A DNA stretch of 64,000 nt, taken from Pseudomonadota bacterium (GTDB lineage: Bacteria; Desulfobacterota; Desulfobulbia; Desulfobulbales; JAHJIY01). A model generated the notes under the pieces. That model saw nothing but the letters and a program-made list of their open reading frames with translations. It was not told the origin of the DNA and searched no databases. The position numbers and the translations under genes are program-made. Positions 3,835 through 53,446 of this stretch are shown in pieces. How positions within the stretch are numbered: the first letter of the stretch is position 1; the number at the start of each line of letters is the position of its first letter. Where the stretch lies: assembly GCA_018823175.1 (NCBI GenBank), contig JAHJIY010000004.1:1963-65962 (forward strand). The letters run 5' to 3'.

Positions 3835-6800
3835 TTAATTGTTGTTACATTCGGACTGGATTGCAACCGCTGAACCGGCAAGTCTCGAATTGGCACCAAC
3901 TGTAATTGTAATGTTATCAGTGGTGTTACCGGTTGCAGCGTTAGTCCTCTGCCATACTTCGGTATACGTAAGAGCATTCGTCATGGTATACGAAGGTGAA
4001 GTAGTAGCATCGAGTGTACAATCGGTTGTACTATTACTTGATGCTCCGATTACTGCAAAGTCATTCGCCGCATAAGAGATTGGCAAGTTCACAGTAGTAG
4101 TTGTAGCACGAGTGTTATTGTAAGCAGCAACACCAGTCCCTCCACTCGGGGATGGATTCGTCTGATTGACATAGTCATATGCTATAGCAGCCATAGCTAT
4201 TTCGGTAGGTGTAGAGCTGGTCGTATAATCCAAAACCGAATTGGTGGCCGCATCGAGGCACGCTTCATCACAGAAACCTATCCAGGACTGAGCCCTCTGA
4301 GCGGTGACGTCATCTCCAGCATTAGCTACCATGGAAAGAGATTGTCCACCATAGGTAACCGCTTTGGTTGTAGCACCGGCAGTACCGTAGTGCATGCCTA
4401 ATTGAACAACCAGGAGCCTACGACCTGCATCGCCAGCGCCAGGCGTCGTATGAGACCCGGTCGGGACAGCGAATGTACCAAGATCATTAACCTGCGTAAA
4501 ACCTGCCAATACGGTAGCAGTACCACAGGAAGGCGCAGCAGTAACGGTCGCAACAATTGAATCATTAAACGATCCAGAAGCATCCGAGACCGTGTAGCTA
4601 ATGGTACAAGACTGAGCTCCAGCCGGAGCGGTCCAGCTTATGTTGGTAGGCTGACCGATTGCCTGATAAGCGGTTGGGATACTGGTATTAACCGTCCCAC
4701 CACAGTTATCAGAGAATGCTGTTACCCTAATCTGGTCAGCTTCGTTATCAGTAACCGTACTGGTTACCTCAATATTAGTTTTGGTCGTGCTCTCCACAAT
4801 ATTGAAGTCAGCAGGTGGTGTTCCGATAACCGGAGCATTATTAGCCGTAGCAGTAATAAAGACCGTGGCGGTAGCAGTGCTGGCGTCACTAGCGGTAATG
4901 GTATAGGTGAATTGGGTATTACCAGTCGTACCATTACCGGTAAAGTTAACACTGACATTATCAAGCCCGATACCCACCGAACCGAAAGTAGGTTGAGTTA
5001 CCCCAGTAATGGTGATGCCGGTACCGCCGTCATTAGCAAACAGGGTCGCCAGGTTGGTGACCACTAAATTGCCTGAGCCTACCGTTAAGCGGACCGGAGT
5101 CCCATCATCCCCTGCAGAGGCCGGGGTCGGCACGTTAGCATCAGTGATCGGATAAGCCATGACATCGACACTATCACTTTGAGAACTGACCACGTTTACT
5201 GTCCTTCCATCGGTCGGATAAGTGTAATTAAGCACTTCGGCCGTACAGGAACCGGTATCGATAAATCCTACATTACCCGCGCCATTCTCCAGAGTCAGAT
5301 CAGTACAGACCCCGTTGGTGACTGTCGCGGTCACGGTCAGAGTCGTCCCAAGCCAGTTCGCACTGGAAACCGCAACGATATCAATAGTTGCATTCTTCTG
5401 CACCCTGGCGTTCGGGGTTTGCTGGGCAAAGGCCGGGATCGTATCAAGCACCGCCGTAGTCGGAGTCGGGTAATTCGTATTGGAGTTATAGGCGGCGCCG
5501 GTCCAAGGAAGCGGAACGCTAAGCTGACCATCCGTAGTCGGAGTGGCTACCGCCGTCGGCATGGTTACACCCTTATAGGTCCGCCCGTTGGCCCGGGAAT
5601 TGTTGTTATAATACCCGGCATTTTTAGAACCTAAAGAACCATTGGTCCGATTACCACAACGGGTTGAGCCCCAGGTGGTAGAGTTCCAGGCAGTGCCGAC
5701 CGCATCATTACCACTCGGATTTGTCCCGGTAGGCCGGAAGATATCACCATAGTAATTGATGTTACTGATGTCGTTAAAGTTAGTCCGGCCCGGCAGGTAT
5801 TGACCGGCATTATAGTTGGCCAAACTTCCGCAGTAACTCTGGGTCGGCTTGATATTGGTCGGGAAACCGTGCGCCGGGTTTACGACAGGAGCCAATACTC
5901 CGCCAGCGGTATTGGTACCATCATGACAACCAATACAGATACCCCAGTTGTTGATCTGGTTGGCGGTATTGGGAATGGTATGAACCGTGGTCTTGGGATA
6001 CGCTGCCGACCAGGCGCCGGTGGCGCCGGTGGCGCCGGTCTTCTTGGCATCCGACCCCTGGTTGAAGGCGGTAATGGTCATATTGTTACCCGCCCAACCG
6101 TCCGTCCGGCCGTTTTGGCTGGAGGCAACTTGCCCGGTACCCTTGGCAGCCTTAGGCATCACATGACACTCCTCGCAGGCCAGATGGGTCGGCGGCGCGG
6201 TATAGCCGCCACCAGGCCGGTTGGTGGAGTAGGGAGAGACGTTCCAATTCGCAATCCGCGTATCGGTATGACAATGCTCACAGGCACCACTCAAGGTATT
6301 GGCATTCCCATGATGGATGTTGCCAAGAGGAGTAGCGTTATGACAACCCGTACAGACACCAGGGGTCATGGCGCCAACACCCTTAGTGGTAGGAGCCGTC
6401 TTCAATCCACCAGCTAATGTGGTGGGATCAAAAGTATGGCAGGTAACACAGGCGTTGTGCACCAGTCCGTCAGTAGTGCTCACCGGCATCGCCGTAGCGG
6501 TACCTGCGACATTGGCGGCAATATGGCAGCCACTAGTAATACAGCTGGTTCCGGTCGCCACAACCCGAGTCAGATGGTTAGCCGGCAACTTGGCCAGGCT
6601 TGAAAGACTCGAAGCATTTGCCGCATGGCAGGTTACACAGTTGTTACTGGTTGCGGTTGCCGTATCATGATGGATACCACCGATGACAATGTTACCAACA
6701 TTATGACAGGTCAGACAATTAAAGGTCGTAAGGTCAGAATGAGGTGCGCCGGCAACTTTATCAGTAGCTTCCCTGGCATCACCATCACCATTAGCCCCCA

Positions 6801-9800
6801 GTTTTGCGGTATCACGTCCAGTCTGACCGTTAATATGGCAGGTATCACAAACATTTCCGTGAACATCTTTAACCACATCAGGGTTTGCAACATTATCATG
6901 ACAGGTTCCACAAGCAGCTATACTTGCAGCGTCCCAAGCAAAGTGGGCAATATCATGTCCACCATGGGGTAGGGTCCGTACGCCATGACAATCGGCACAA
7001 TCCGGTGCAGCATTAGATCCGGTACGCTTACCATTAGTGATGGCGAGATCGATATCGGCCTTCACTAACTTACTGCCACCATAGTTATGACAACTGTCAC
7101 AGACCATGCCACCGCTATAAGACGTGGTAGCCCTTGTCATATGGCCGGAGTAAATATTGGTAAAGCCCATGGCATCATGGCAGGTGTTACAAGTTCCGGT
7201 AATCGAAACATCCTCAGTTCGAACTGGAGCATTAACCTGGCCATTCTCATAAACACCGGCCGAGTGATCAATCGCATGATCACTGTCATCAGAGTTGTAC
7301 GTAGTATGACAGGTGGCACAGTTACTGCTGTTGGCACCGGTTATCGGCATCACAGGTGCCCGAACACTTGTTCCTACCAGAGCACCGGAAGTGGTATTAT
7401 GGCAGGAATCACAAGCGTCATGCAGGAGATTGCTGGCACCTACCGTTATCCCGGTAAGGTATCCAGCCGTATTAACATGACATGCGGTGGTACAATCTGA
7501 GGCCGCATTGGCAACCGTCAGGCTGTGATTGGTGCCGGAGGTGGTATGGATCGACTGCCAACCTGCGCTATGACAAACGTCACACTCGCCGCCAACTACG
7601 GTCATGCCCGGAGCCAGGGCTGCGGTAACCAGACCGCCATCAACATCATGACAGTTCTCACAATCACCGGAGAATTGACCGGTAATATTGTTATGAACAT
7701 CAAGTGCGGCAGTAAACGGTGAAACATTAGCCCGGGCTGCGTTAGCAGTACCATCGGCATCATGACATCTCTCGCAGGTGACACTGGTCGTAGTCTTAAC
7801 CAGGCCGACATGAATGGCCGGGGCCGAAGTGGTATGCATACTCTCCCAAGCATCGGTATGACAATCGGCACAGTTATTGGTCCCGGTTGACATCACGTTT
7901 ACACCTTTGGTTCCAGGTGCGGTTACCAGGGTTCCACGATAATCAGTGCTGACCGCCAGTGTATGACAAGTGCCGCAAGCATCATGAACCCCGTTATCAC
8001 CAAGTGCAACCGGAGCGCCGGTTCCGGCGGTATCAGCGGTCGCGGTATGACAACCGACACAGGTACTTGGAATGGCGGTATTATCAATGGTCGCGCTGTG
8101 GCTTGTCGCGGTATGACAGCGAACAGCACAGTTGGCAACAAGCTCTGGACTGTTGGTCTTGTTATCATGATGGATCCCGCCGATTGTCCCGGCATTAACT
8201 GCGGTCCCTGAGGTAGCCGGGCTATGACAGGTTAAGCAATTAAAGGTGGTCAGGTCGGAATGGGGAGCGCCGGCAACACCATCGGTTGCTCTGGTGGCGT
8301 CACCATCGATACCGTTTAATCCCGCACCGGCCTCTGCTGTATCACGACCGGTTGAGCCATCAACATGACACATATCACAAACACCATGGATATCATCTGC
8401 CACATTAGGAGTACCCGCATTATTATGACATGAACCACAAGCGGTTATGGATGCGGCATCCCAAGGGAAATCAGTCGCAGGATGACTTCCATGCGGCAGA
8501 CCACGTGGACCATGACAATCAGCACATGAGGCCAAGTTTGCAGGTATATCTGTTTTCGCACTAGCGATGGTATTAGCAACTGCGGCAACGGCACTGTTAT
8601 GGCAAGTACCGCAGGTAATTGCCGTTCCAGCTAAAGTACCATCGGTTACGCCAGTAATATCGGCAACTTTAATCGTCAGACCGACATGAGCGCTGGCCAG
8701 ATTGGTATTAAAGTTGGTGCCGCCGGAACCTTTGCCGGCATGACAGGTATTACACTGACCAATTACACTACCAGTTGCACTACTTTCCTGAGTAATCGCA
8801 TCTTCGTAGTCAGTATTGTTATGCTCGGAAGCATGACCATTGACCCGATCGGTATGACACTGGGCACAATTCTGAGCCGTACCTTTGACATGGGTAGCAG
8901 CGTAACTCCTCAATGTACCGTCATCAGGGGTTCCAGTCGTATCGGTATGACATGAATTACAACTGTTATGAACCGCCGTCTGGACATTGCCGATATGACA
9001 TACTTCACATGAGCCGGTAGTGGCAGTAACCATAGTTGCATGGGTATCAGTGGTTACGGTATGACTGGCATCATTAAAATCATTGGCCAGTGTGGAATGG
9101 CATTTCAAACAGTCACTAGCAACCCCGAAGACATGGTTGGTAGCGCTGCCTTTGAGCGTACCGTTTGTCACATCATTGGTATGGCAGATGTTACATTTGC
9201 TACCATGGATACCGGTAATAATATTGGTCGTACCATGACAGGTAGTACATTTTGCTGAATTAGTTGAAACTACCTTGGTGTGAGTCTGGACCTGATGGGC
9301 CGCCTTGAAATCACTGTAGGCGCCATGACATGTGTTACAGTCACTTGGGATGTTAATCACATGAAGGGTAGCGTTACCTACGGAGATAGCGGCAGCCCGA
9401 CTGGTAGCTCCCGTACCATCTACAAATCGACCATCGGTTCCACCAGTAACAACCGTATCAAGATGACAGTTCTCACAACCATTAACATTATGGGTATTAG
9501 CCACGATATTGGCGGCTGAACTACCGTCATGACAGTTGGTTGTACAGTTACCGGCAGCGTTAGCGGTAATTACATCCGCTGCCGCTTGAGTCTGGTGGTT
9601 GGTGTTGTTATGACCGGCGCCAGCAAAGTCGGTATTATGACTAGCATGACAATCGACACAGGTTCCACCGTGACCACTGTTAATTCCTTCGTAGTTCACT
9701 TGCTCGCTAATGGTACCACCGAGCGGAGCATCACCGCCAACACTGTAGTTCCAAAGAGCGTCGCCACCGGTCGGAGCTTTATGACATTTGCCACAAACGC

Positions 9801-12501
9801 CGTGGATGGTATCAATATAAGTATCGTTATCCGCAGTACCTGCCTGATCATGACAGGAGGTACACTCGGCAGATCCCTTAACTACGCCGGCTCCGGCCCC
9901 GCCATCATATGTGGTATGATCAATGATGCCATGAGGGGTATTTGGAACCTTCGGAAGATGACAGGTACGACAATTTACGGTGCCTGTACTGCTGATCGCG
10001 GCACTGACCGTAGCGGTCTCCATCACATTATAAGTACCACTACCCTTCACATAATCATGGCAGACAGCGCAGGAACCATGCTCGGAAAGAACCCCGGCAA
10101 AGGTATTGAGATCATATGTACTATGACAACCGACTCCGCCATTCCAACAACCCTTGACCGCGGTTTGCGAAGTATCACCAACCGAATCATAAAGAACATC
10201 ATGGGTAGTTGCCCGATCATTGGTGGCCATCGGCGAAACATGAATTACATTAAATACGGCATGGCAGTTAACACACTCGCCTCTTCCGGAAGGAATAACC
10301 GCACCGGTAGCCGGATTATGACAGGTTTCACATTTCAGAGCACTATGAACCTCGGTGCCTGCCGTATAGGGAGCAGTGGTCGCTTCATGACAACCAGTAC
10401 AGTTAATGGTATTCGGAGTTAAACCAATGTTTCCGGTTACGCTGGTCGCATGACCCGGATGGGTATGTCCAGCAAAGTAAGCGCCATGACATTCTTCACA
10501 GTTGCCGCCTTTGCCTAAACCGCTACCGTAATCACCGGAAGCGTCACCAACATCACCAGGGGCGCTGCCGGCAATACCGTTAATCCGTTCACCGGTAGTG
10601 GTGCTATGACAGTTGGTACAATCTGCATCATGGGTACCGGCATTTCCGGAACCAACATAAGAAGCATCAATCACATCACCAGCATGACAATTGGCGCAAA
10701 GGGAGGTGGTGACAACTGAGGCAACATGGTCATGGGTATGAGCAGCAAAATAGGACACATGACATTGAATACAGGTGCCGCCAGCACCACCATTAACAGT
10801 GGCATCACCGACATTGGTGATTGTACCGCCGTAACTGGCAGCGTTGGCCGCGCCGTTAACCCGGGAACCATCTACCGTGCTGTGACAGTTCCAGCAGTTA
10901 TTGTTATGAACGGTAACGCCACTGGTATGACAGTTCACACATAGCGCCGTATCATTAATCCCAGTATGAGGATGAATATGGTTATCAAAGTAGGTGGTAT
11001 GACATTCCTGACAGGTGGCAACCGCATTCTGGCCAGGCATGGCGCCTGGCTTAAGCTCGACCGGCGGCGGGGTAACCGTAATATGACAAAGATCGCAATT
11101 ATCATTGTGGACATTAACGGCACTGACGATGGTATCGGCATTTGCCACAGTGTCATGACAAGCGGAAACACACAGAGGGAAAGTAGTCAGGGCGAGATCA
11201 TGAACGCCGGTCAGAACCGGATGGCCGGAATCTTTGCCGGCATGACAATGGAGACAGCTTATCGCCCAATCGGCTGAATGATTGGAACCAGTATTAGTCC
11301 ATGAATAACCCTGCAAAGGACCAGCACCATCAGGATCAACCGCTATCCGAACAAGAACGGTTGGGTTAAGGTCAGGAGTACTGGAGGTATGGCAGATAGT
11401 ACAATCAGCATGTGCGGTCTGAGGATCAGTGACGTAGGACGAATGACATTTGGCACAAGTTAATGCACCAGCAGTTATTATTGCTGGCACCCCGGCATGA
11501 GCCGGAGCACCGCCACCACCAGCAAAAATATTATGACAATCAGTACAAGCCTCGCCAACATGATGGCCAGGAACCGGGTCAGTACCATTAGCAACCCAAT
11601 AATTAGTAGCGACATGACATGACTGACAAAGTCCTTCTGGAGAAGCAGCATTATCTGGGGCATTATCAACAAAACCACCGGTGGTTGCCGGAATTGAGGC
11701 CGGCTCATAAAATTTCACATTCCGGTTGCCGTTGCCATGGGACATGGCACTGGTCATAAACGAACGGATCAACTGACCGTAGAACAGACCGAAGTTTTTA
11801 CCAGAATATAAAGTAGCGTTAACAACACCTTTAACGGTGATCGTCGTCGGGGTTGCGGAGAGAACCTCAAAAACCTCATTGGGGTTGGCCCGGTTGGCAA
11901 CAAACATCAGTCCACGGGAACCGTCTGTTGCCCGAAGTGCCATGGCGGGTGTATCTACGGAATAAGCGCCAGCGGCGCCTTTGGCGTACCAGGTTGTCTC
12001 ATCGGCATATTTGCCGGCAAAGCCGGTATGGGTGATGGTCGTGGTGCCGAGGGGATTGGCTGAGGATTGGCTACCGACATTGAAGTCTATACTGGTGATC
12101 AGATCACCGTTCGCAACCCAAAGACCGGAGTCCGTATTCCAGTCCAACTGCTCCTGGTAATGGGCATTGTGACAATCGGAACATAAGGTAGTCCAGTTTT
12201 CCGTACCGTTGATCTGGAGATCGGAATGCATCGCCTTGATCGGGCCCGGGACCGCAAGAACGGCAAGGACCGGAGAGTCGCCGTGGCAGTTCAGACACAA
12301 CAAGTTTTCAGGTGCAGTGTCAGCAGTAGACGGCGGCATAACTCCTCGAGACATATTGGCAATAAATTTATGACAATGCCAGCATGCGATGCCGCTTGCT
12401 TCGTTGTGAGGCGCATCCATCGAATACGCCTGACTGGTGCCGGTGTTTATTGCCAGTGTGGCCAGCAATAAACCTAAGAATAACGCCAGTTTCTTCATCA
12501 T
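3835..12501 (-). CDS. Giant secreted multiheme cytochrome c (about 2,888 aa, about 63 heme-binding motifs) with a heme-free Ig/cadherin-like C-terminal region
   Basis: The minus-strand ORF is uninterrupted for 8.7 kb. I moved the start to the ATG-ATG at 12501/12498, which follows an AAGGGGGA Shine-Dalgarno sequence. The Sec signal is MMKKLALFLGLLLATLAINTGTSQA. Between nt 12384 and 5923 I counted by hand about 58 CXXCH motifs, 4 CX3CH motifs (CVSACH, CTTNCH, CAVRCH, CTTACH) and 1 CX4CH motif (CITSGCH). The last 690 aa or so have no heme motif and are rich in T, S, N and G, with beta-sandwich-like segments (for example TYTITASDASTATATVFITATANNAPV). Confidence 0.93.
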   Translation of the reverse strand: MMKKLALFLGLLLATLAINTGTSQAYSMDAPHNEASGIACWHCHKFIANMSRGVMPPSTADTAPENLLCLNCHGDSPVLAVLAVPGPIKAMHSDLQINGTENWTTLCSDCHNAHYQEQLDWNTDSGLWVANGDLITSIDFNVGSQSSANPLGTTTITHTGFAGKYADETTWYAKGAAGAYSVDTPAMALRATDGSRGLMFVANRANPNEVFEVLSATPTTITVKGVVNATLYSGKNFGLFYGQLIRSFMTSAMSHGNGNRNVKFYEPASIPATTGGFVDNAPDNAASPEGLCQSCHVATNYWVANGTDPVPGHHVGEACTDCHNIFAGGGGAPAHAGVPAIITAGALTCAKCHSSYVTDPQTAHADCTICHTSSTPDLNPTVLVRIAVDPDGAGPLQGYSWTNTGSNHSADWAISCLHCHAGKDSGHPVLTGVHDLALTTFPLCVSACHDTVANADTIVSAVNVHNDNCDLCHITVTPPPVELKPGAMPGQNAVATCQECHTTYFDNHIHPHTGINDTALCVNCHTSGVTVHNNNCWNCHSTVDGSRVNGAANAASYGGTITNVGDATVNGGAGGTCIQCHVSYFAAHTHDHVASVVTTSLCANCHAGDVIDASYVGSGNAGTHDADCTNCHSTTTGERINGIAGSAPGDVGDASGDYGSGLGKGGNCEECHGAYFAGHTHPGHATSVTGNIGLTPNTINCTGCHEATTAPYTAGTEVHSALKCETCHNPATGAVIPSGRGECVNCHAVFNVIHVSPMATNDRATTHDVLYDSVGDTSQTAVKGCWNGGVGCHSTYDLNTFAGVLSEHGSCAVCHDYVKGSGTYNVMETATVSAAISSTGTVNCRTCHLPKVPNTPHGIIDHTTYDGGAGAGVVKGSAECTSCHDQAGTADNDTYIDTIHGVCGKCHKAPTGGDALWNYSVGGDAPLGGTISEQVNYEGINSGHGGTCVDCHASHNTDFAGAGHNNTNHQTQAAADVITANAAGNCTTNCHDGSSAANIVANTHNVNGCENCHLDTVVTGGTDGRFVDGTGATSRAAAISVGNATLHVINIPSDCNTCHGAYSDFKAAHQVQTHTKVVSTNSAKCTTCHGTTNIITGIHGSKCNICHTNDVTNGTLKGSATNHVFGVASDCLKCHSTLANDFNDASHTVTTDTHATMVTATTGSCEVCHIGNVQTAVHNSCNSCHTDTTGTPDDGTLRSYAATHVKGTAQNCAQCHTDRVNGHASEHNNTDYEDAITQESSATGSVIGQCNTCHAGKGSGGTNFNTNLASAHVGLTIKVADITGVTDGTLAGTAITCGTCHNSAVAAVANTIASAKTDIPANLASCADCHGPRGLPHGSHPATDFPWDAASITACGSCHNNAGTPNVADDIHGVCDMCHVDGSTGRDTAEAGAGLNGIDGDATRATDGVAGAPHSDLTTFNCLTCHSPATSGTAVNAGTIGGIHHDNKTNSPELVANCAVRCHTATSHSATIDNTAIPSTCVGCHTATADTAGTGAPVALGDNGVHDACGTCHTLAVSTDYRGTLVTAPGTKGVNVMSTGTNNCADCHTDAWESMHTTSAPAIHVGLVKTTTSVTCERCHDADGTANAARANVSPFTAALDVHNNITGQFSGDCENCHDVDGGLVTAALAPGMTVVGGECDVCHSAGWQSIHTTSGTNHSLTVANAASDCTTACHVNTAGYLTGITVGASNLLHDACDSCHNTTSGALVGTSVRAPVMPITGANSSNCATCHTTYNSDDSDHAIDHSAGVYENGQVNAPVRTEDVSITGTCNTCHDAMGFTNIYSGHMTRATTSYSGGMVCDSCHNYGGSKLVKADIDLAITNGKRTGSNAAPDCADCHGVRTLPHGGHDIAHFAWDAASIAACGTCHDNVANPDVVKDVHGNVCDTCHINGQTGRDTAKLGANGDGDAREATDKVAGAPHSDLTTFNCLTCHNVGNIVIGGIHHDTATATSNNCVTCHAANASSLSSLAKLPANHLTRVVATGTSCITSGCHIAANVAGTATAMPVSTTDGLVHNACVTCHTFDPTTLAGGLKTAPTTKGVGAMTPGVCTGCHNATPLGNIHHGNANTLSGACEHCHTDTRIANWNVSPYSTNRPGGGYTAPPTHLACEECHVMPKAAKGTGQVASSQNGRTDGWAGNNMTITAFNQGSDAKKTGATGATGAWSAAYPKTTVHTIPNTANQINNWGICIGCHDGTNTAGGVLAPVVNPAHGFPTNIKPTQSYCGSLANYNAGQYLPGRTNFNDISNINYYGDIFRPTGTNPSGNDAVGTAWNSTTWGSTRCGNRTNGSLGSKNAGYYNNNSRANGRTYKGVTMPTAVATPTTDGQLSVPLPWTGAAYNSNTNYPTPTTAVLDTIPAFAQQTPNARVQKNATIDIVAVSSANWLGTTLTVTATVTNGVCTDLTLENGAGNVGFIDTGSCTAEVLNYTYPTDGRTVNVVSSQSDSVDVMAYPITDANVPTPASAGDDGTPVRLTVGSGNLVVTNLATLFANDGGTGITITGVTQPTFGSVGIGLDNVSVNFTGNGTTGNTQFTYTITASDASTATATVFITATANNAPVIGTPPADFNIVESTTKTNIEVTSTVTDNEADQIRVTAFSDNCGGTVNTSIPTAYQAIGQPTNISWTAPAGAQSCTISYTVSDASGSFNDSIVATVTAAPSCGTATVLAGFTQVNDLGTFAVPTGSHTTPGAGDAGRRLLVVQLGMHYGTAGATTKAVTYGGQSLSMVANAGDDVTAQRAQSWIGFCDEACLDAATNSVLDYTTSSTPTEIAMAAIAYDYVNQTNPSPSGGTGVAAYNNTRATTTTVNLPISYAANDFAVIGASSNSTTDCTLDATTSPSYTMTNALTYTEVWQRTNAATGNTTDNITITVGANSRLAGSAVAIQSECNNN
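6338..7000 (-). repeat. Internal 8-heme module, copy B, of the giant cytochrome
   Basis: The segment CADCHGVRTLPHGGHDIAHFAWDAASIAACGTCH...APHSDLTTFNCLTCH...CTGCH has the same order and spacing of heme motifs as copy A, offset by about 1.53 kb. Confidence 0.85.
7855..8528 (-). repeat. Internal 8-heme module, copy A, of the giant cytochrome
   Basis: The segment CADCHGPRGLPHGSHPATDFPWDAASITACGSCH...APHSDLTTFNCLTCH...CADCH is paralogous to copy B at 6338-7000. Long identical peptide strings are shared, including AGAPHSDLTTFNCLTCH and WDAASI.ACG.CH. Confidence 0.85.
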
Positions 12502-13277
12502 GTATCCCCCTTGGTCAATTAATTTAACGTCCTGACTCGACGCCCGTAATAAAAAAAACCCCAATATTCAAGTTGCTGCCTGAAGACGGCCTGGCTCGCT
12601 ATCCCCAAACAACTATAAAAAAAATTAAAAAAGAGGACACCATTAGAACGGTGCCCCAATCAGCGAAACCTGTTGATTTCGCATAAAAATATCCGCTTGT
12701 CGGGGCGGAAATCATTTAAAAGGTATCATTAATATATATAATTTTAAGCAGATATAAAAAAGTCAATTTATACATACTTGTATTCATATTAACACGAGCA
12801 CACTCCTTGCGTCAACTATTTTCTTGACAATTGTCCTTGTTAAATCGATGTGGGAAAAGGGTCAGAAGTCTTTTGTTTATTCTGAAAAAGCAATATTCAC
12901 GCCACAAAAAATAGTGGTTAGCTGACCATAAAAAATTTCAAACCCATTTACGCGAAATATTTTTAAAACAGATAACCAAGAAATCACTTCCATTCAGCCA
13001 CAAAACATGAAAGTCAACCCATTCAAGATGATAGGCATTGATCGCTGACAATTTATTTTATTTTAACTGTTCCAACCATTCGAATAATATTATCTTGACA
13101 TTTTTCGGCACCATAACGTAGCGCAGCTGACAAAAAACGTCAGACCGAAACGAGGTAATACCCTCTCCGTCTTACCCGGTTGCATACTCTTTCATTATCA
13201 TTTATATTAGCACGTTCTATTTTACTAAATAATGACGAACCGACAGAGATTAAGCAACCTGATACCCCAAGGACATT

Positions 13278-13961: not shown

Positions 13962-15164
13962 TTGCTTTACCAAACCATCATCTGCCTTGCCTTCCTGATC
14001 ATGTTTCCTGCGGCCCAATGTTTCGGGGCAAAGATCGAGGGGATAGTCATGTCTCCCAAAGGGCCGGTTACCGGGGCCGAAGTCAGGGCCTACCCCGACT
14101 TTTCCTCTCTGGTCGCCGAGCGCGACGGTATTTTGTCATCGGCCGGGGCCAAAGAAGGTCAATTCACCATGGAACTGCCCAAGGGCAGATATTTCTTTGT
14201 GGCGCGGGGCTCCGAGGCCGGACATGAAATGTTTGCCTACCACGGGATTAATCCGGTAGCTGTTACCCACGACTACTACTGGCTGCCTTTTTTCCTGGTC
14301 GAGGCCAGGGAGGCGCGATGTTCGGTCGGCCCGCAAGGGATCAAGGGCCGGGTGACCTACAAGGGGGAACCACTGACTAACGGAGTTGTCTCGGTTTACC
14401 AATCAGCTGAAACAAGTTTTCGGGGGATGGGACTACTGACCAACACCCTCAACGACGACGGACTGTTCTGGTTTGACCTTGAACCAGGCCCCTATGTGGT
14501 GGTAGCCAGAAAAAGACAGAGCGACCAGGGAATCGGCCCGGTCAAGCGCGGCGATATTTTCTGCTATCCATCCGCCAACCCGATCAATGTGCTGCCGGAG
14601 AGTTACTGTGAGGTCGAAATAAGCTGTTACCCACGGGACAATATGGAGTCCTTTATCGACGAAGGCACGGAAAACCCACGCGGCAGAAAAGAAGAAACCA
14701 GAAGACCAGCCTCGCTCTGGGATGTTCCGGCCCAGGAAGCGGAAGGTACAATGAAACCGCCGGAGAGACTTGCCGTGGTTAGCGGCCGGGTGAGCAACCG
14801 ACAGGATAAACCGCTGGCCGGATTATTCGTTACCGCCTACCCCGCCCTGGGGATTGATCGGTTTCAGATGCATGTTGTCCGGCTAAAGACCGACTACATG
14901 GCCCGAACCGACGAAAACGGCCTATACCGCCTGGAACTTGACCGACCCGAAAAATATTATCTGGTGGCCCGGGAAAAAGTCGGTGAGGCGCCGAACCGGC
15001 AGGAATATTACGGACTATACGAAGGTAACTTCAACCACAGCATCGAAGTGCGGCCGGGAGAGAACTATTCCAGGATCAATATTACGGCTGAGCGCATCAT
15101 GCCTTTTGCCAACGCTATTTCAAGCACCAAAACAAATCAATCACCGGTAGGAAAATTACCATGA
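13962..15164 (+). CDS. Secreted protein with three carboxypeptidase-regulatory-like (CarboxypepD_reg) beta-sandwich repeats
   Basis: 400-aa ORF starting at a TTG (start uncertain) with a hydrophobic N-terminus LYQTIICLAFLIMFPAAQC. Three repeat starts fit CarboxypepD_reg domains: IEGIVMSPKGPVTGAEVRAY, IKGRVTYKGEPLTNGVVSVY and VSGRVSNRQDKPLAGLFVTAY. Confidence 0.55.
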   Translation: MLYQTIICLAFLIMFPAAQCFGAKIEGIVMSPKGPVTGAEVRAYPDFSSLVAERDGILSSAGAKEGQFTMELPKGRYFFVARGSEAGHEMFAYHGINPVAVTHDYYWLPFFLVEAREARCSVGPQGIKGRVTYKGEPLTNGVVSVYQSAETSFRGMGLLTNTLNDDGLFWFDLEPGPYVVVARKRQSDQGIGPVKRGDIFCYPSANPINVLPESYCEVEISCYPRDNMESFIDEGTENPRGRKEETRRPASLWDVPAQEAEGTMKPPERLAVVSGRVSNRQDKPLAGLFVTAYPALGIDRFQMHVVRLKTDYMARTDENGLYRLELDRPEKYYLVAREKVGEAPNRQEYYGLYEGNFNHSIEVRPGENYSRINITAERIMPFANAISSTKTNQSPVGKLP

Positions 15165-16075
15165 GAAATGTCATGTTCTCCGCATTTCTCCTTTGTTTTG
15201 CGCTCATGAGCGCCGGGCAAACTCACGCTCAGCCACTGGTTCTAGGTGATCAGATCATTCGGACCGACACGGTCTGGTCGGGGGAGATCATAGTTGACGG
15301 AGTGGTGGTGGTCGGTCGGGAGGCGACCCTCACGATCAAACCCGGCACCAGGATCCGGTTTAGGAAGAAAGACCTGAACAACGACCAGATCGGCGACTCG
15401 GAGATCCGGGTCCTGGGCAGACTGATCGCCCGGGGCACACCGGAGGAAATCATAACTTTTGCCTCAGCCGAACCGGTCCCGACGAGCAAGGACTGGTCCT
15501 ACGTGATGATCTTCACTTCCGGGCAGGAGAATTTTATCCAATATTGCTCATTCCAGCATGCCTTCACTGGCCTGCAGGTTCATTTTTCGGTGGCCCGCAT
15601 TGCCGACTCGACTTTTACCGATAACTTCGAGGGATTACGTTTCGGCCGTGGTGAATTGACCATTGAGCACAACCGCTTTTCGCATAATGACGTAGGAATC
15701 CGTTTTACCAGAATGGAAGGGCCGGCGACGATCAGGCAAAATGAGATCACCGACAACCGATTGGGGATATTCCTGGTCCCTTCCGGCCAGAATATCATGG
15801 ATTTCTTCGAACCAGACCGGAGCGGCCGGGCCTGGAATACAGGACACTTAATGATCACCGCCAATAATATTTTTAACAACTCATGGTATGATCTCGATTT
15901 AGGTGAAAAACAATTCTGGAACCTGGAGGCCGCCGGAAACTGGTGGGGAACTACCGACCACAACCAGATCAGCGCCAAGATGTTCGCCCATCAACGTGAC
16001 CCGGCCCTGGGCAAGGTTTTATATCAGCCGACCGCCACCGCAAAAATTACCGAAGCCGGCCCTAGAATGAGGTAG
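15161..16075 (+). CDS. Secreted right-handed parallel beta-helix repeat protein (NosD/PbH1-like)
   Basis: The ATG overlaps the upstream stop (ATGA), so the two genes form an operon. The signal peptide is MRNVMFSAFLLCFALMSAGQTHA. PbH1-type repeats are present: IADSTFTDNFEGLRF, IEHNRFSHNDVGIRF, IRQNEITDNRLGIFL and ITANNIFNNSWYDL. Confidence 0.7.
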   Translation: MRNVMFSAFLLCFALMSAGQTHAQPLVLGDQIIRTDTVWSGEIIVDGVVVVGREATLTIKPGTRIRFRKKDLNNDQIGDSEIRVLGRLIARGTPEEIITFASAEPVPTSKDWSYVMIFTSGQENFIQYCSFQHAFTGLQVHFSVARIADSTFTDNFEGLRFGRGELTIEHNRFSHNDVGIRFTRMEGPATIRQNEITDNRLGIFLVPSGQNIMDFFEPDRSGRAWNTGHLMITANNIFNNSWYDLDLGEKQFWNLEAAGNWWGTTDHNQISAKMFAHQRDPALGKVLYQPTATAKITEAGPRMR

Positions 16076-16348
16076 AGAAGGTTGGAGGTTGGAGGTTGAA
16101 GGTTTAAGGTTTAAGGTTGAAGGCTGGAGGTTGGAGGCTGGAGGTTGAAGGTTGGAGGCTGGAGGCTGGAGGCTGAAGGCTGGAGGCTGGAGGCTGGAGG
16201 CTGGAGGTTGAAGGCTGGAGGCTGGAGGTTGGAGGTTGAAGGCTGGAGGTTGGAGGTTGAAGGTTGAAGGCTGGAGGCTGGAGGTTGGAGGTTGGAGGCT
16301 GGAGGCTGGAGGCTGGAGGCTGGAGGTTGAAGGCTGGAGGCTGGAGGT
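16076..16348 (+). repeat. Heptanucleotide tandem array of 39 units of T[GT][GA]AGG[TC] in perfect 7-nt register
   Basis: The array starts on the nucleotide after the TAG stop at 16073-16075. I checked unit boundaries at 16083, 16139, 16202, 16265 and 16321 and all are in phase. 27 of the 39 units are TGGAGG[TC], which contains the GGAGG Shine-Dalgarno core. Confidence 0.95.
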
Positions 16349-16432
16349 TGTTAAGAGTGGAAAACTTGTTACTATTTACTTGTCACTCGTCACTCATCAC
16401 TTGTCATTCGTCACTTGTCACTTGTCACTTCC
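16349..16432 (+). repeat. Second heptad family (..GTTACTA TTTACTT GTCACTC GTCACTC..), 12 units, continuing array 1 in the same 7-nt phase
   Basis: The units read TGTTAAG AGTGGAA AACTTGT TACTATT TACTTGT CACTCGT CACTCAT CACTTGT CATTCGT CACTTGT CACTTGT CACTTCC. Nucleotides 16076-16432 span 357 nt, which is exactly 51 x 7. The 11-mer GTTACTATTTA lies at 16368-16378. Confidence 0.9.
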
Positions 16433-16458: not shown

Positions 16459-17643
16459 ATGAAAATCACCGAAAAAAACGGTGAACCGGCCCTGATCGTT
16501 GAATACCATGACGAACGGGAAGACTTTAACGGCTGGCTGGTTATCGATGCCCTTGATTATCGGCTCTGTGCCGGCGGCATGCGGGTCCAACCGGGGCTGA
16601 GCCGGGAACATCTGATTGAAATGGCCCGCAACATGACCCGTAAAATGCGGATGGCAAATCTGCGGGTAAACGGGGCCAAATCCGGAATCGACTATGATCC
16701 GGCCAATCCCGGGAAACAGGCCGCCATTACCCGGTTCATGCAGGCGATCAAAAGCCAGATCCAGGAACGTTATTCGATGGGACCGGACCTGAACGTCGAA
16801 ATGTCGGAGCTGGAAAAGGCCGGGCGGGAGATCGGCCTGCCGTCGGTCAAGATGGCGATCGCCGCCGCCCAGAATTGGGAGATGGAATACTACCTGCAAC
16901 GGGCCTCAATTCTCTCGGCAAAAATAGACAATTGGTCTCTGGGCAGATTACGGGCTGGTTACGGGGTGGCCGCCGCAGTCCTTTCGGTGCTGGACTACTC
17001 GGGAATACCACCAGCAAATGCCACCCTGGCCATCCAGGGTTTCGGCACCCTGGCCAAGGCTGCGGCATACGGCCTAATCAGGGCCGGAGCAAAAATAATC
17101 GCCATTGCCGACCGTGAAAAATGCCTGGTCGCCAAGGACGGTCACAGCCTGAATATGGAGCTACTGCTGCAGGTCAAGGGAGGATTACTTCCCGCCTCCG
17201 GCCATGGCGACCATGTTGAGATTTTCGCCAAAGAAAAAATTACCGAGATTAATTGCGACATTCTGGTGCCGGCTGCGGTGGAAAATACGATCACCGGGGC
17301 AATCGCCAGCAACCTGCCGGTCAAAATCGTGGTGCCCGGAGCCAACCTGGCGGTCTCGGCTGAGGCAGTGGAAATTCTATATGAACGCGGCATTATAGTC
17401 CTGCCTGATTTTCTGGCCGGCAGCGGCGGCTCGTTATCGATGGAAGGACTTTTCGGCCCGGCTGAACATCCGGAGCCGCTCGCGGTCTTAAACCACGTGA
17501 AAACCAGGATGGACGAACTGGTCCTTGAGGTCCTTAACCGCAGTATTGCCGCCCGGATCAATCCAACGGAAGCGGCCCTGCTGATCTGCGGAGAACGACA
17601 AAAAACTCCGGGAACAAGACCATACGGCAATCCCGAAGGTTAA
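16459..17643 (+). CDS. Glu/Leu/Phe/Val-type amino-acid dehydrogenase (LeuDH/PheDH-like)
   Basis: 394-aa ORF. LVIDALDYRLCAGGMRV matches the GPAxGGxR-type motif. VNGAKSGIDYDP is the catalytic-Lys block. IQGFGTLAKAAAYGLIRAGAKIIAIADRE is a Rossmann dinucleotide fold. An AAGG ribosome-binding site lies 8 nt upstream of the ATG. Confidence 0.8.
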   Translation: MKITEKNGEPALIVEYHDEREDFNGWLVIDALDYRLCAGGMRVQPGLSREHLIEMARNMTRKMRMANLRVNGAKSGIDYDPANPGKQAAITRFMQAIKSQIQERYSMGPDLNVEMSELEKAGREIGLPSVKMAIAAAQNWEMEYYLQRASILSAKIDNWSLGRLRAGYGVAAAVLSVLDYSGIPPANATLAIQGFGTLAKAAAYGLIRAGAKIIAIADREKCLVAKDGHSLNMELLLQVKGGLLPASGHGDHVEIFAKEKITEINCDILVPAAVENTITGAIASNLPVKIVVPGANLAVSAEAVEILYERGIIVLPDFLAGSGGSLSMEGLFGPAEHPEPLAVLNHVKTRMDELVLEVLNRSIAARINPTEAALLICGERQKTPGTRPYGNPEG

Positions 17644-17685: not shown

Positions 17686-17853
17686 ATTAGGTTGAAGGTT
17701 GAAGGTATAAGGCTTAAGTTATAAGACTGAAGATAAAGGTAGATTTTTTTTAATTTCCTTCAGCCTTCTACCTTCAACCTTCAACCTTCAACCTTCAACC
17801 TTCAACCTTCAACCTTCTACCTTCAACCTTCAACCTTCTACCTTCAACCTCCA
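17686..17853. repeat. Inverted heptad repeat: a degenerate (TGAAGGT)n left arm and an (ACCTTCA)14 right arm
   Basis: The left arm runs 17686-17740 (ATTAGGT TGAAGGT TGAAGGT ATAAGGC TTAAGTT ...). The right arm runs 17756-17853, with 14 phased units ending in ACCTCCA. Nucleotides 17690-17713 (GGTTGAAGGTTGAAGGTATAAGGC) are complementary to 17763-17786 at 23 of 24 positions. Confidence 0.9.
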
Positions 17854-20803: not shown

Positions 20804-21745
20804 ATGGAATCAAGTTTAATGCTCTACGGCGGGGCTATCGTGCTCGGCGCCCTGCACGCTTTTGAGCCGGGACACGGCAAATCAATTATTGCCGCCTATA
20901 TGATCGGAACCAGAGGTCGAGCGATCGACGGGATTATCCTGGGACTAATCGTCACCTTTACCCACACCTTCAGCGTTATTATCCTCGGGATCCTGGCCAG
21001 CATCCTCTCCCAGTCATTTACCGATGACCAGCTTCACACCTGGATGGGACTGTTTTCTTCCATCCTGATTCTCATAGTCGGACTATGGATGCTGAAAGAC
21101 CGCTTAAAAGGGGCCGGCGGGCATAGCCATTTTCACTTTTTCTGCAAAGAACACAGCCATGACCACCATGCCGACCCACATGCGCACGCTCATGGCGCGC
21201 ACGATCATCACCAGCACGATGACCAGCATAGTCACAGCCATGACCACCATGCCGACCCACATGCGCACGCTCATGGCGCGCACGATCATCACCAGCACGA
21301 TGACCAGCATAGTCACAGCCATGATCATCATGACCACATGCATCACGATCACGACCATCATGATCACGACCATGCCTGCGACCACGATCACCACCAGCAC
21401 GAACCAGCCACCTCTGAAGGCGTTCAGCCGGAAAACAATATGTGGCGGCTGCTGATACTCGGAGTATCAGGTGGTCTGGTCCCCTGCCCACCGGCCATCG
21501 TCGCGCTGCTGGCAGCCATTGCCGCCGGTCGGATCGCTGAAGGTCTCACCGTAACGCTTTTCTTCAGTCTTGGCCTGGGACTGGTGATGATGACCATCGG
21601 CGTTGTTCTCTCGCAGGCCGGCAGATTGACCCAAAAAATCAGTGACAACCTTGATCTGGCCAGGAAATTCGGGATATTAAGCGCCGTTATCATCACGATA
21701 TTAGGCTTATACATGTTATTTCACTCATTAAAGAGTATTTTATAA
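20804..21745 (+). CDS. rcnA: Nickel/cobalt efflux protein of the NicO/RcnA family with a very long His-rich loop
   Basis: HAFEPGHGKS is the NicO signature. The ORF has about 6 hydrophobic helices. The central loop of about 95 aa is made almost entirely of H and D residues (HSHDHHADPHAHAHGAHDHHQHDDQ...). Confidence 0.8.
   Translation: MESSLMLYGGAIVLGALHAFEPGHGKSIIAAYMIGTRGRAIDGIILGLIVTFTHTFSVIILGILASILSQSFTDDQLHTWMGLFSSILILIVGLWMLKDRLKGAGGHSHFHFFCKEHSHDHHADPHAHAHGAHDHHQHDDQHSHSHDHHADPHAHAHGAHDHHQHDDQHSHSHDHHDHMHHDHDHHDHDHACDHDHHQHEPATSEGVQPENNMWRLLILGVSGGLVPCPPAIVALLAAIAAGRIAEGLTVTLFFSLGLGLVMMTIGVVLSQAGRLTQKISDNLDLARKFGILSAVIITILGLYMLFHSLKSIL
21152..21313 (+). repeat. Perfect 81-bp (27-codon) tandem duplication inside the rcnA His-rich loop
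   Basis: CACAGCCATGACCACCATGCCGACCCACATGCGCACGCTCATGGCGCGCACGATCATCACCAGCACGATGACCAGCATAGT occurs at 21152-21232 and again, identically, at 21233-21313. An 11-nt start of a third copy follows. Confidence 0.95.
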
Positions 21746-24093: not shown

Positions 24094-24148
24094 GTGATGA
24101 TCTGTCCACTATTGATATTCATGACGATACGTGATCAACATATTAAGA

Positions 24149-24183
24149 AGTGAAAAGTAACGAGTAAATAGTAACGAGTTTAC
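24149..24183. repeat. Dispersed heptad element (AGTGAAA AGTAACG AGTAAAT AGTAACG AGTTTAC), reverse orientation
   Basis: The 24-nt string AGTAACGAGTAAATAGTAACGAGT at 24156-24179 is identical to 53356-53379. TAAATAGTAAC lies at 24165-24175. Downstream, a degenerate CATTCGT CGTTGTT CCGCTCA stretch looks like a decayed GTCACT arm. Confidence 0.8.
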
Positions 24184-24314
24184 TTCCTTGGTTCCTCATC
24201 TTTTCCATTCGTCGTTGTTCCGCTCACGAGGATGTCTGCCGAAAAGGAATTAAAAAACCAGTAGTTTGGAAAGACGGCTAAAAACTGAGGGCTGATTGCT
24301 TTGTCTCTAAGACA

Positions 24315-49188: not shown

Positions 49189-50961
49189 TTGCAGACCAAA
49201 TCCCCGGTGATCATTATCGGCGGCGGTCCGGCCGGACTGGCCGCAGCCCATCAATGCTTGAGTCTTAAAATGCAGCCCATTGTTTTCGAGATGAATAATC
49301 TGGTCGGCGGCATCTCACGGACCGAGGTCTACAAAGATTATCTTTTTGATATCGGTGGCCATCGTTTCTTTACCCGGATGGAAAACATTGACCGACTCTG
49401 GCAAGAGATGATGGGCGACGATTTCCTGACCGTCTCCCGCCGATCACGGATCTTTTATCAGGGCCGCCTTTACGACTACCCCCTGAAAGCGACAAATGCC
49501 CTTCTCAATCTCGGCATTATTGAGAGCCTGCTGATCATAGCCAGCTATCTGAAGGCGCAAGTCTGCCCCCTGACCCCGGAGGCAAACTTTGAACAATGGG
49601 TGGCCAACCGTTTCGGCTGGCGACTGTACCGGACTTTCTTCAAGACCTATACCGAAAAAGTCTGGGGCATGCCGTGCGATCAGATCCAGGCCGCCTGGGC
49701 CGCGCAACGGATCAAGGGGCTGTCGTTAAAGTCAGCGGTAATCAATGCAATGTTCGGCGGCGGCACCGCCAAAAGCCTGATCGACAGTTTCAAATATCCG
49801 CGGAAAGGGCCGGGCATGATGTGGGAGAGGTTCAAGGACCATATCGAACACAATAACGGCAGTGTCCTGTTGAACAGCAAAACGGAAAGTTTGCGCCATG
49901 AAAACGGCCGAATAATTGCCATGACTTACCGGGACACCGCCGATGAATTGCACACAATGCCGGTGGAACAGATGATTTCCAGCATTCCGGTCAGCAGACT
50001 GATCAAGCTGCTCGATCCCGCCCCACCCGCAGAGGTATTGGCCGCAGCCGACACCTTATCGTACCGTTCATTTCTGATCGTCGGACTGATCATCAACAAG
50101 AAGGGATTATTCCCTGATCAGTGGCTCTACATCCACAGCCCCGAGGTCAAGGTGGGCCGGATTCAGAATTTCGGGAACTGGAGTGCGGCCATGGTACCGG
50201 ACCCCGATAAAAGCAGCATCGGCATGGAATATTTCTGTACGATCGGCGATACGCTCTGGCAGACCGCCGATGCCGATCTGATTAAGATGGCCTCGGCCGA
50301 ACTGACTAAACTTGGCCTGCTTGACCAGGCCGAAATTATCGACGGCACCGTGATCAGACAGCCGCTAGCCTACCCGGTATATGACGCCGGCTATAACAAA
50401 AATCTGTTAATAATCAGGGAGTTTCTCGCCACGATCGGCAATCTGCAAACCATCGGCCGCAACGGGATGCATCGTTACAACAACATGGACCATTCGATGC
50501 AAACCGGCATCATGGCCGCCAAGAATGTTAACGGCGCCCAATATAACCTTTGGACAATCAATGAGGAAGATTCCTATCTGGAAGCGGAAACTCCGACCCT
50601 GGCCAAATCAACCCTGGTCACCAAACTACTGAGCAGATCATTTGCCCGAATGGACGAAGTCGCCTTTGCCACGGCGACCGGCACCCTGGCCGGTCTGGTT
50701 TTATTCCTGGCCACCATCTGGCTGCTCATCCGGGGGGGAGATAATGTCGGCCAGCACCTGAAACTAATCGGCCAATACTTTATCGGTTACAGCGTGACCA
50801 TGGAAGGAGCCTTTATCGCCCTGGCCTATGCCTTTTTTTCCGGATTTCTTTTTGGCTGGTCGCTGGCTTATCTGCGAAATCTCTTTCTGACTCTCTACCT
50901 CTATCAGATCAAGAAGAAAAATGAGATGATGAGCCTGAAAGACCTGATGGACCAATTGTAG
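49189..50961 (+). CDS. FAD/NAD(P)-binding oxidoreductase (amine-oxidase / UDP-galactopyranose-mutase-like fold) with a C-terminal 2-TM domain
   Basis: The ORF starts at a TTG. VIIIGGGPAGLAAAH is the dinucleotide-binding GxGxxG motif. Also present are VGGISRT, FDIGGHRFF and GRNGMHRYNNMDHSM. The C-terminal 90 aa or so are hydrophobic (LAGLVLFLATIWLLIRGGDNVGQHLKLIGQYFIGY...). Confidence 0.75.
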   Translation: MQTKSPVIIIGGGPAGLAAAHQCLSLKMQPIVFEMNNLVGGISRTEVYKDYLFDIGGHRFFTRMENIDRLWQEMMGDDFLTVSRRSRIFYQGRLYDYPLKATNALLNLGIIESLLIIASYLKAQVCPLTPEANFEQWVANRFGWRLYRTFFKTYTEKVWGMPCDQIQAAWAAQRIKGLSLKSAVINAMFGGGTAKSLIDSFKYPRKGPGMMWERFKDHIEHNNGSVLLNSKTESLRHENGRIIAMTYRDTADELHTMPVEQMISSIPVSRLIKLLDPAPPAEVLAAADTLSYRSFLIVGLIINKKGLFPDQWLYIHSPEVKVGRIQNFGNWSAAMVPDPDKSSIGMEYFCTIGDTLWQTADADLIKMASAELTKLGLLDQAEIIDGTVIRQPLAYPVYDAGYNKNLLIIREFLATIGNLQTIGRNGMHRYNNMDHSMQTGIMAAKNVNGAQYNLWTINEEDSYLEAETPTLAKSTLVTKLLSRSFARMDEVAFATATGTLAGLVLFLATIWLLIRGGDNVGQHLKLIGQYFIGYSVTMEGAFIALAYAFFSGFLFGWSLAYLRNLFLTLYLYQIKKKNEMMSLKDLMDQL

Positions 50962-50965
50962 ATAT

Positions 50966-51266
50966 TTTAGGTTGAAGGTTGAAGGTTGAAGGTTGAAGGT
51001 TGAAGGTGGAAGGTTGAAGGTGGAAGGTGGAAGGTGGAAGGTGGAAGGTTGAAGGTTGGAGGTTGAAGGTTGAAGGTGGAAGGTGGAAGGCGGAAGGTTG
51101 AAGGTTGGAGGCTGGAGGCTGAAGATTGGAGGCTGAAGGTTGGAGGCTGAAGGTGGAAGGTTGGAGGCTGAAAGTGGAAGGTTGGAGGCTGAAGGTTGGA
51201 GGCTGAAGGTTGGAGGCTGAAGGTTGGAGGCTGAAGGTTGGAGGCTGAAGGTTGAAGGTGGAAGTG
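50966..51266 (+). repeat. Heptanucleotide tandem array of 43 units ([TG]G[AG]AGG[TCG] type) in perfect 7-nt register
   Basis: The array starts 5 nt after the TAG stop at 50959-50961. I checked phase at 50973, 51001, 51127, 51246 and 51253. Units include TGAAGGT, GGAAGGT, TGGAGGC and TGGAGGT, so it belongs to the same family as 16076-16348. Confidence 0.95.
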
Positions 51267-53336: not shown

Positions 53337-53348
53337 CAACTATGTTAA

Positions 53349-53446
53349 AGTGACTAGTAACGAGTAAATAGTAACGAGTAAATATCAACGTGTTCCCCAC
53401 TCGTCACTCGTCACTCGTCACTTGTCACTTGTCACTTGTCACTTTG
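53349..53446. repeat. Palindromic heptad element: an AGTGACT AGTAACG AGTAAAT AGTAACG AGTAAAT arm facing a (CACTCGT)3(CACTTGT)3 arm, 14 units in phase
   Basis: The left arm starts at 53349 and the right arm at 53398, an offset of 49 nt (7 x 7). The arms are approximate reverse complements (AGTGAC / GTCACT). TAAATAGTAAC lies at 53365-53375. Confidence 0.9.

Follow-up and report, generated by a model that had tools for sequence, protein, structure and literature searches.

The heptanucleotide array at positions 16369-16431 is best read as the expanded pyrimidine arm of a half-copy of a dispersed, ~104-nt intergenic element, which itself appears to be a MITE-like derivative of an IS110-family IS. 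According to this reading, to which a probability of roughly 0.6 is assigned as a whole, the arms of the element consist of heptads, their number changes through slippage, and the copies undergo neutral decay. The window referred to throughout is the whole stretch of 64,000 nucleotides that was analysed (C93:1963-65962) from a 4.1-Mb, 111-contig draft MAG (G000), in which genes were called with a crude ORF/codon-usage caller. The genome belongs to the Desulfobulbales, and no other member of its family was present among the genomes searched; its RpoB is ~70% identical to those of Desulfopila and Desulforhopalus. The locus comprises the following features:

15161-16075 (+): upstream gene, right-handed beta-helix / NosD-like (Pfam)
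16076-16350 (+): A-family array, 39 x RAGGYTG (TRF and sequence)
16331-16431 (+): putative 3' half-copy of the element (covariance model (CM) match 16331-16399, 29.8 bits, model positions 33-100)
16351-16368 (+): 18-nt non-repeat spacer, GTTAAGAGTGGAAAACTTG (sequence, flank listing and CM alignment)
16369-16431 (+): B-family array, nine TYACTNN units (sequence and TRF; partial nhmmer match to element model 55-93, E = 3e-7)
16459-17643 (+): downstream gene, ELFV dehydrogenase family (Pfam)

Read in the TYACT frame, nine heptads fill 16369-16431, in the order TTACTAT TTACTTG TCACTCG TCACTCA TCACTTG TCATTCG TCACTTG TCACTTG TCACTTC, and TRF places a period-7 array of 7.6 copies with 82% matches at 16378-16430. 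The second heptad family reported at 16349-16432 by the first-pass annotation is therefore real. Its further claim, that this family continues the preceding array in the same phase as 51 unbroken units, does not hold: the 18-nt spacer splits the two arrays, the figure of 357 = 51x7 depends on where the ends were set and on how the unit was rotated, which is arbitrary, and the GTCACTY units on which the register was based begin at offset 5 relative to 16076. Nor can a phase rule be derived from the register, since arrays of the A and B types lie <80 nt apart at one place only in the 4.1-Mb genome (16076-16431). The A array is context here and lies outside the B family. The 3' part of the spacer (GGAAAACTTG) matches the loop of the element described below (GGGGAAAAACTCG), and the nine heptads that follow would, judging from this alignment, represent its expanded 3' (pyrimidine) arm.

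The two arrays occupy a spacer of 383 nt between the NosD/beta-helix gene and the Glu/Leu/Phe/Val-dehydrogenase-like gene. The A array begins one base past the TAG stop of the former, with its purine strand being the sense strand of both flanking genes, and the B array stops 27 nt ahead of ATG 16459 of the latter. Neither a sigma-70-like promoter nor a terminator-like site was found when the 383-nt spacer before 16459 was scanned. In an independent Logan assembly (run SRR2540949), the contig breaks within the A array and the B array is recovered base for base, which shows that the latter is no artefact of the present assembly. On both strands, this locus is less stable as a fold than shuffled sequence (z = +3.3), its A-type purine array being set opposite a pyrimidine array of the B type. 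With the ELFV dehydrogenase as a synteny probe, no relative was matched in a first scan of the genome contigs.

The first-pass annotation had further pointed to an 11-mer, GTTACTATTTA, at four loci of the window, and exact copies are indeed present at 16368(+), 24165(-), 53365(-) and 62870(+). The same is true for the 24-mer AGTAACGAGTAAATAGTAACGAGT, identical at 24156-24179 and 53356-53379 and found at four further sites of the genome. Within the window, the 11-mer is not a product of chance (none of 100 shuffles yielded any match). Genome-wide, 21 copies were observed versus 1.4 expected under an order-3 Markov model, and a model trained on intergenic DNA, arrays included, predicted only 0.6. 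An 11-mer no commoner than composition predicts, named beforehand as the outcome that would speak against a dispersed repeat, is thus the opposite of what was found. The statement that the 11-mer always lies between genes stands for the 16 of the 21 copies outside the crude gene calls; four more are located in ORFs apparently miscalled across heptad arrays, and for one copy, which is clearly coding, the statement fails. This copy sits in an IS110-type transposase ORF on contig C2. It was considered as a possible sign of a cognate IS110 and rejected as a coincidence, the ORF being unrelated.

When near-matches to the recurrent four-unit string TTACTATTTACTCGTTACTTGTCACTTT were listed with their flanks, conservation was found to reach ~70 nt upstream, and the consensus of the resulting element reads TAACATCCATCCCCGCGAGCGGGAACAACGAAGCATGAAAGTGACGAGTAACAAGGGGAAAAACTCG-TTACTAT-TTACTCG-TTACTTG-TCACTTT-CATATAA. 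On the TYACT strand, it starts with a left-end (LE) module of ~44 nt (TAACATCCATCCCCGCGAGCGGGAACAACGAAGCATGAAAGT), followed by a purine arm (AAAGTGA CGAGTAA C), a loop (AAGGGGAAAAACTCG), a pyrimidine arm (TTACTAT TTACTCG TTACTTG TCACTTT) and the right end (RE), CATATAA. Because the 11-mer spans the junction between loop and 3' arm, every recurrence of it marks a copy of the element. A genome search with nhmmer returned 77 matches, 35 of them near full length and all 35 outside called genes. The covariance model that had been proposed as a check was built (R1) and identified 26 copies in this genome, with scores of 44-109 bits, and four loci in the window. The earlier suspicion, that heptads here make up an intergenic repeat which is dispersed and may be mobile, is thereby given substance: the element of ~104 nt has 26 or more strong copies, all outside called genes, and its termini are homologous to the ends of an IS110-family IS. 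Apart from the half-copy, the window contains the following:

24140-24243 (-): full-length decayed copy (CM 82.7 bits, E = 9e-19, model 1-104)
53347-53483 (-): full copy, arms expanded by heptads (LE alignment; nhmmer matches to model 40-95 and 3-57)
62803-62905 (+): full-length decayed copy (CM 83.2 bits, E = 6.5e-19, model 1-104)

Three of the four loci marked by the 11-mer are thus full copies and the fourth, at 16349-16432, is a 3' half-copy. The copy at 24140-24243(-) consists of LE, a two-unit purine arm, loop, a four-unit pyrimidine arm and RE, and it holds both the 11-mer (24165-24175) and the 24-mer; it folds no better than shuffled sequence (z = +0.2). That at 62803-62905(+), with the 11-mer at 62870-62880, lies between a PilZ gene and an SPFH/Band-7 gene (Pfam) and likewise folds no better than shuffles (z = -0.9). 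The third copy is matched by the covariance model at 53354-53455(-) with 34 bits. Its LE module (~53483-53440, minus strand) aligns to other copies and to the IS end of genome G004 dealt with below, its purine arm has seven units (CACTYGT x7 on the plus strand, 53398-53444), and its pyrimidine arm appears on the plus strand as AGTAA units at 53355-53390, with the 11-mer at 53365-53375. This copy forms a strong hairpin (z = -5.7 and -7.3 for the plus and minus strands, respectively). The start codon of the longest ORF of a neighbouring AsmA/YhdP-like gene, GTG 53390, falls inside the heptad element. The resulting N-terminal extension (53390-53513) is spurious, because the ORF from ATG 53513 onwards already covers the Pfam AsmA match, which sets in at residue 2 of that ORF. 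Pyrimidine arrays, which contain no stop codons, also give rise to false N-terminal extensions elsewhere, e.g., 'SLFTIYSSPFTINSS...' at C55:74156.

The flanks of the element differ at all sites except for one pair of copies on C108 (27205-27294 and 32402-32505), which are 5 kb apart and have common flanks on both sides; this pair is a segmental duplication, not two independent insertions. Neither a conserved flank nor a target motif or duplication at the borders was visible in 19 copies, the decayed borders being uncertain to ±2 nt. As the mean column identity among copies is ~73%, they are old and diverged, and any mobility would therefore be historical. The small hairpin within LE (GTTCCCGCTCGCGGGGATG, reverse strand) resembles a type I-E CRISPR repeat. 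A fuzzy scan of the genome encountered it only as solitary copies inside the element, never arrayed, and a CRISPR repeat was therefore rejected.

The origin of the element was indicated by its relatives. In other Desulfobulbales, R1 yielded weaker matches in 17 of 151 genomes. The match in one of these, G004, corresponds to the first 45 nt of a ~1.75-kb unit, which is present in three 100%-identical copies with unrelated flanks, starts exactly with CACTAACCCCCATCCCCGTGGACGGGAACAACGAAGCATGAAACTTT, ends exactly with ...GAGAGTTTCATATAAA, and encodes a transposase of 421 aa (PF01548 and PF02371; DEDD_Tnp_IS110 and Transposase_20). The element consensus is like this IS at 36 of 44 positions of the left end and, at the right end, at TTTCATATAA. 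Since its termini match both ends of an IS110-family IS, the element is probably a non-autonomous, MITE-like derivative of such an IS, too short to carry a transposase. Homology of both termini to the ends of an autonomous IS, a length of ~104 nt and many dispersed copies are all features of a MITE; a cognate transposase or signs of recent mobility, which also belong to the definition, were not found, the copies being ~73% identical. A homologue of the G004 transposase was detected neither by tblastn nor by genome search in this 94%-complete draft, from whose assembly IS copies may be missing, and the three other IS110-type ORFs of the genome lack LE/RE ends. Short elements with the same two ends and unrelated interiors of 20-150 nt occur in other Desulfobulbales (L085, L086, L088 and L090) and on metagenome contigs. 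The 21-mer core of LE was retrieved from 10 such contigs, with interiors devoid of heptads, and a 25-mer composed of LE and the start of the heptads had no match in the metagenome scan. In G081 (L087, C120:5458-5582), a frame of IS ends (LE ... ATGAAAGT) is followed by the heptads AAGTTTT AAGTTAA AAGTGTT AAGTTTT, a series (AAGTTNN) suggesting that heptads arise repeatedly beside the inverted repeat ATGAAAGT.

Period 7 is exceptional in this genome. TRF reports 221 period-7 arrays (8.7 kb), more bases than for any other period, and strict arrays number 66 at period 7 versus 10 or fewer at any other period from 4 to 12. Two cores dominate: AGTGA/TCACT at 52 period-7 loci (44 for its variant AGTAA/TTACT) and AAGGT/ACCTT at 37, compared with a median of 1 for all 5-mers; at periods 5, 6, 8, 9 and 10, the cores AGTGA, AGTAA and AAGGT occur at one locus at most. 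The catalogue comprises 82 B arrays (550 units; predominantly TCACTAT, TCACTCG, TTACTCG and TTACTAT) and 45 A arrays (527 units; predominantly AAGGTTG, AAGGCTG and AAGGTAG). All B arrays except three lie outside the crude gene calls (79/82), and those three are in ORFs apparently miscalled across them. The loop motif GAAAAACTCG is present at the 5' side of 26 of the 82 B arrays and an RE-like end in 26 of the 82; that only ~1/3 of the B arrays keep an IS-end or loop signature argues against the MITE reading.

Within the element, the arms range from a minimum of 2+2 units (e.g., C8:34425 and C83:18084) through the commonest arrangement, 2+4, to the 7+5 of the copy at 53347-53483, in which LE is intact; some copies have 7+5 units or more with both ends intact. 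The lengths of the CM matches cluster at 104 nt, with outliers (89-90, 110-111, 117 and 132) in steps of ~7 or 14 nt. Array length variation, here meaning differences among paralogous copies, is considerable: arrays of up to 27 units occur on single contigs, and unit number varies from 3 to >27 across arrays. At C13:31300-31488, a contig ends, and at C26:6-152 another begins, in one TCACTAT-TTACTCG array (27 and 21 units, respectively). The two contigs are probably adjacent, in which case an array of at least 48 units would have broken the assembly. One might also suspect that arrays are transposon termini, given pairs with a spacing of ~1.4 kb on C55 and further pairs on C93 and C96; this idea was rejected, for these pairs flank housekeeping genes (valS, mqn and opp), not transposases.

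Comparable arrays occur in the wider order. The TCACT core was present in 12 of 41 genomes from several families of the order. Long TCACTCT, TCACTTG, TTACTGG or TCACTCC arrays, some at contig ends, were seen in G014, G010, G001 and G024, and the last carries the exact 26-mer TTACTATTTACTCGTTACTTGTCACT. Hairpins of the B type without the LE module are found in other families of the order (G024, G122 and G056), and the heptads may therefore predate the MITE or be independent of it. A TCACT core shared across genera, with the last two bases of the unit variable, is explained by pure slippage only via shared ancestry. The geometry of B is shared by the A family, in which no IS signature of any kind was seen; this hints at a cause that both have in common and that is not confined to this element.

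Several arrays and repeats in and near the window were recorded in passing. An A array of 42 units (50969-51264), among the longest of the genome, follows 7 nt past the TAG stop of an amine-oxidase-like gene (49189-50961). An inverted A pair at 17689-17850, composed of degenerating (AGGTTGA)n, an AT-rich loop and (CCTTCAA)13, is purine-first like the B pairs and stops 17 nt ahead of ATG 17868 of an adenylosuccinate-lyase-like gene. Beyond the window, at C93:92700-98160, each of five spacers of a minus-strand operon contains a B array, typically a few nucleotides from the upstream stop; by inspection, the products of this operon look like menaquinone (futalosine-pathway) enzymes. An ORF of 2909 aa at 3835-12564 (-) with many cytochrome c7/c3 and MtrC/MtrF-like domains encodes a giant multihaem cytochrome. 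A tandem repeat of 81 nt with 2.2 copies (98% identical) occupies 21152-21332; behind it come repeats of 21 and 15 nt in which CAT, CAC and GAC abound. These repeats are located within ORF 20804-21745 or antisense to it, and this ORF may encode a His-rich repeat protein.

The following history would account for the element. The ends of an IS110-family IS would have given rise to its modules, the left end to LE and the right end to RE, and the recombinase of that IS may once have moved the element in trans. As the arms already consisted of at least two tandem heptads, slippage or unequal exchange could then have added or removed 7-nt units. The present copies would be selfish or neutral DNA in decay, with intergenic spacers as the only places where it is tolerated. 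At 16076-16431, a half-copy would simply happen to adjoin an unrelated A array, both filling a spacer within an operon.

The placement of the arrays relative to genes is not fully explained by this history. Inverted array pairs are without exception (14/14 for B and 5/5 for A) ordered purine arm, loop, pyrimidine arm. Between co-directional genes, the median distance from the upstream stop codon to a purine-sense array is 2 nt for B and 8 nt for A, and several of these arrays themselves supply that stop; from the end of a pyrimidine-sense array to the next start, the median is 40 nt (B) or 33 nt (A). Of 58 solitary arrays, 49 have the 5' end of their purine strand towards the nearer gene; over-extended ORF starts may have inflated the start-side portion of this number. 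A reading frame that enters from either side is brought to an end by this geometry, given that stop codons (TGA, TAA or TAG) occur in every frame of the purine strand. Purifying selection that restricts the places where such DNA can persist could lie behind it, or else a function. The MITE reading leaves partly unexplained why the pairs are purine-first, why purine arrays adjoin stop codons and why the TCACT core is found across genera.

A functional interpretation, which we consider rather unlikely, was retained because of this geometry, the B hairpins without IS ends, and the A family without IS signature. The heptads would be cis-elements, either with AGTGA/TCACT and AAGGT/ACCTT cores read by a trans-acting single-strand binder (candidates being proteins of the cold-shock-domain, S1 or KH type, or the 16S 3' end), or with arm pairs forming hairpins in the mRNA between cistrons and thereby determining stability or translational coupling; the MITE would do no more than carry the heptads, or would have acquired them. 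Such a role is suggested by the unique over-representation of period 7 and of its cores, by the purine-first order of all 19 inverted pairs, by the spacing of the arrays from stops and starts, by the occurrence of TCACT in several families, by arrays filling spacers within housekeeping operons (mqn and opp), and by the post-transcriptional role argued for analogous heptamers, the TAACTGA repeats of Beggiatoaceae (MacGregor 2015; PMC4679880). It is weakened by a lack of covariation or structure conservation among the copies, by loci some of which are strong hairpins and others anti-structured, and by unit numbers without pattern by gene function. Moreover, the purine-first order of the B family is inherited from the subterminal inverted repeat of the IS (ATGAAAGT...ACTTTCAT), and the conservation of core positions is partly built into the detection rule; per-position unit entropy was dropped as evidence of constraint for the very reason that this rule itself fixes the core. 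A structured RNA with a conserved fold was rejected: Rfam gave no match in the window at the gathering score and none in related loci at E <= 0.1 except for one chance miRNA match, RNAalifold found 0 consensus pairs among element copies, and in hand-specified hairpins 72.2% of the cells pair compared with 72.6% once columns are shuffled, while compensatory changes are no more frequent than expected. Asymmetry of G·U versus A·C in the arms was also no significant cue to the transcribed strand (antisense more stable in 7 of 9 co-directional pairs). The far-reaching version of the functional idea, which has little probability in our estimate, is that the NNAGTGA and RAGGYNN families constitute the cis-acting part of a post-transcriptional system that Desulfobulbales would possess and that is new to the literature, in which purine arrays at stops and pyrimidine arrays ahead of starts would be read unit by unit by a single-strand binder or the anti-SD tail of 16S and would control ribosome release/re-initiation or mRNA processing in operon spacers, with the IS110-derived element as the vehicle of their spread.

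Two further readings concern the origin of the repeat. According to one, LE and RE are the halves of an older REP/MITE-like palindrome targeted by IS110 elements; the G004 IS would then occupy such a target, and the copies in G000 would be targets left intact. In favour of this reading, repeated palindromes are known insertion sites of IS110/IS1111 elements (PMC5896051; PMC12288879), and in the sampled genomes and metagenomes, full IS copies are far fewer than short LE...RE elements. Insertion into pre-existing targets would, however, leave diverged halves, whereas the 100% identity of the three G004 copies reaches the outer edge of both modules and then stops; being bounded exactly by the modules, it shows that these move with the transposase, which makes the target reading very improbable. 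The other reading, an ordinary isolated microsatellite with 11-mer matches due to chance or low complexity, can draw on the fact that some k-mer counts are inflated by AT-rich intergenic DNA. It is already refuted, with next to no probability left to it, by the 21 copies of the 11-mer, far above either expectation (1.4, or 0.6 with the intergenic-trained model), and by matches that extend to ~100 nt of alignable sequence.

As a MITE-like derivative of an IS110-family IS, the element joins known types of repeat as a variant and is not a new kind of system. One of its closest counterparts is MITEPpu9 of Pseudomonas putida KT2440, which is bounded by the 43-bp A box and the 16-bp B box of the IS110-family ISPpu9 and forms minicircles (PMC12288879). 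Both are short, non-autonomous elements with IS110-family left (~43-44 nt) and right (~13-16 nt) ends and non-transposase cargo between them, dispersed in intergenic DNA. The cargo of MITEPpu9 is an sRNA gene, whereas here it is an expanding and contracting heptad hairpin; furthermore, the copies described here are old and diverged and have no cognate transposase in the genome and no evident REP target. QMITE2 of Coxiella burnetii is likewise a palindromic MITE linked to an IS110/IS1111 element and found mostly in 3' UTRs and intergenic DNA, but it is the insertion target of IS1111 (PMC5896051), while the sequences shared here are IS termini. REP/BIME sequences with RAYT are also short, dispersed intergenic palindromes, often within operons. 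The present element differs from them in lacking a GTAG-type head and in measuring ~100 nt with two distinct end modules, and a link to RAYT/REP was rejected, as none of the four PF01797 matches above cut-off had the element or genuine B/A arrays within 2.5 kb.

On the side of the heptads, the arrays resemble the cyanobacterial STRR, the TAACTGA repeats of Beggiatoaceae, Cyanobacteria and Bacteroidetes (PMC4679880), and the GGGGAYT/GGGAATC repeats of Nostoc and Xanthomonas (PMC4692102) in their excess of period 7, almost exclusively intergenic location, stop codons in all three frames of one strand, variable copy number and patchy phylogeny. Unlike in those families, the motifs here are TYACTNN and RAGGYNN, often in inverted, purine-first pairs, and they match none of CCCCAGT, TTGGTCA, CAACAGT, TAACTGA and GGGGAYT. 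The TAACTGA repeats are located 1-3 nt before start codons, whereas the purine arrays described here abut stops, and the B family is, in contrast to other heptanucleotide repeats, physically embedded in an IS-derived element. An incomplete literature search found no published heptamer repeats in Desulfobulbales.

For genome analysis, the arrays matter in that they create false N-terminal extensions and spurious ORFs, as exemplified by GTG 53390, and their position at contig ends suggests that short-read assemblies can break there. For the organism, a Desulfobulbales MAG of a poorly studied lineage, a conspicuous repeat is given an explanation. This explanation links non-autonomous elements of the IS110 family with the intergenic heptanucleotide arrays of several large or filamentous bacteria, two subjects usually treated apart. 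If the subterminal inverted repeats of an IS can seed heptad arrays, this would provide a concrete origin for at least some of the 'STRR-like' repeats.
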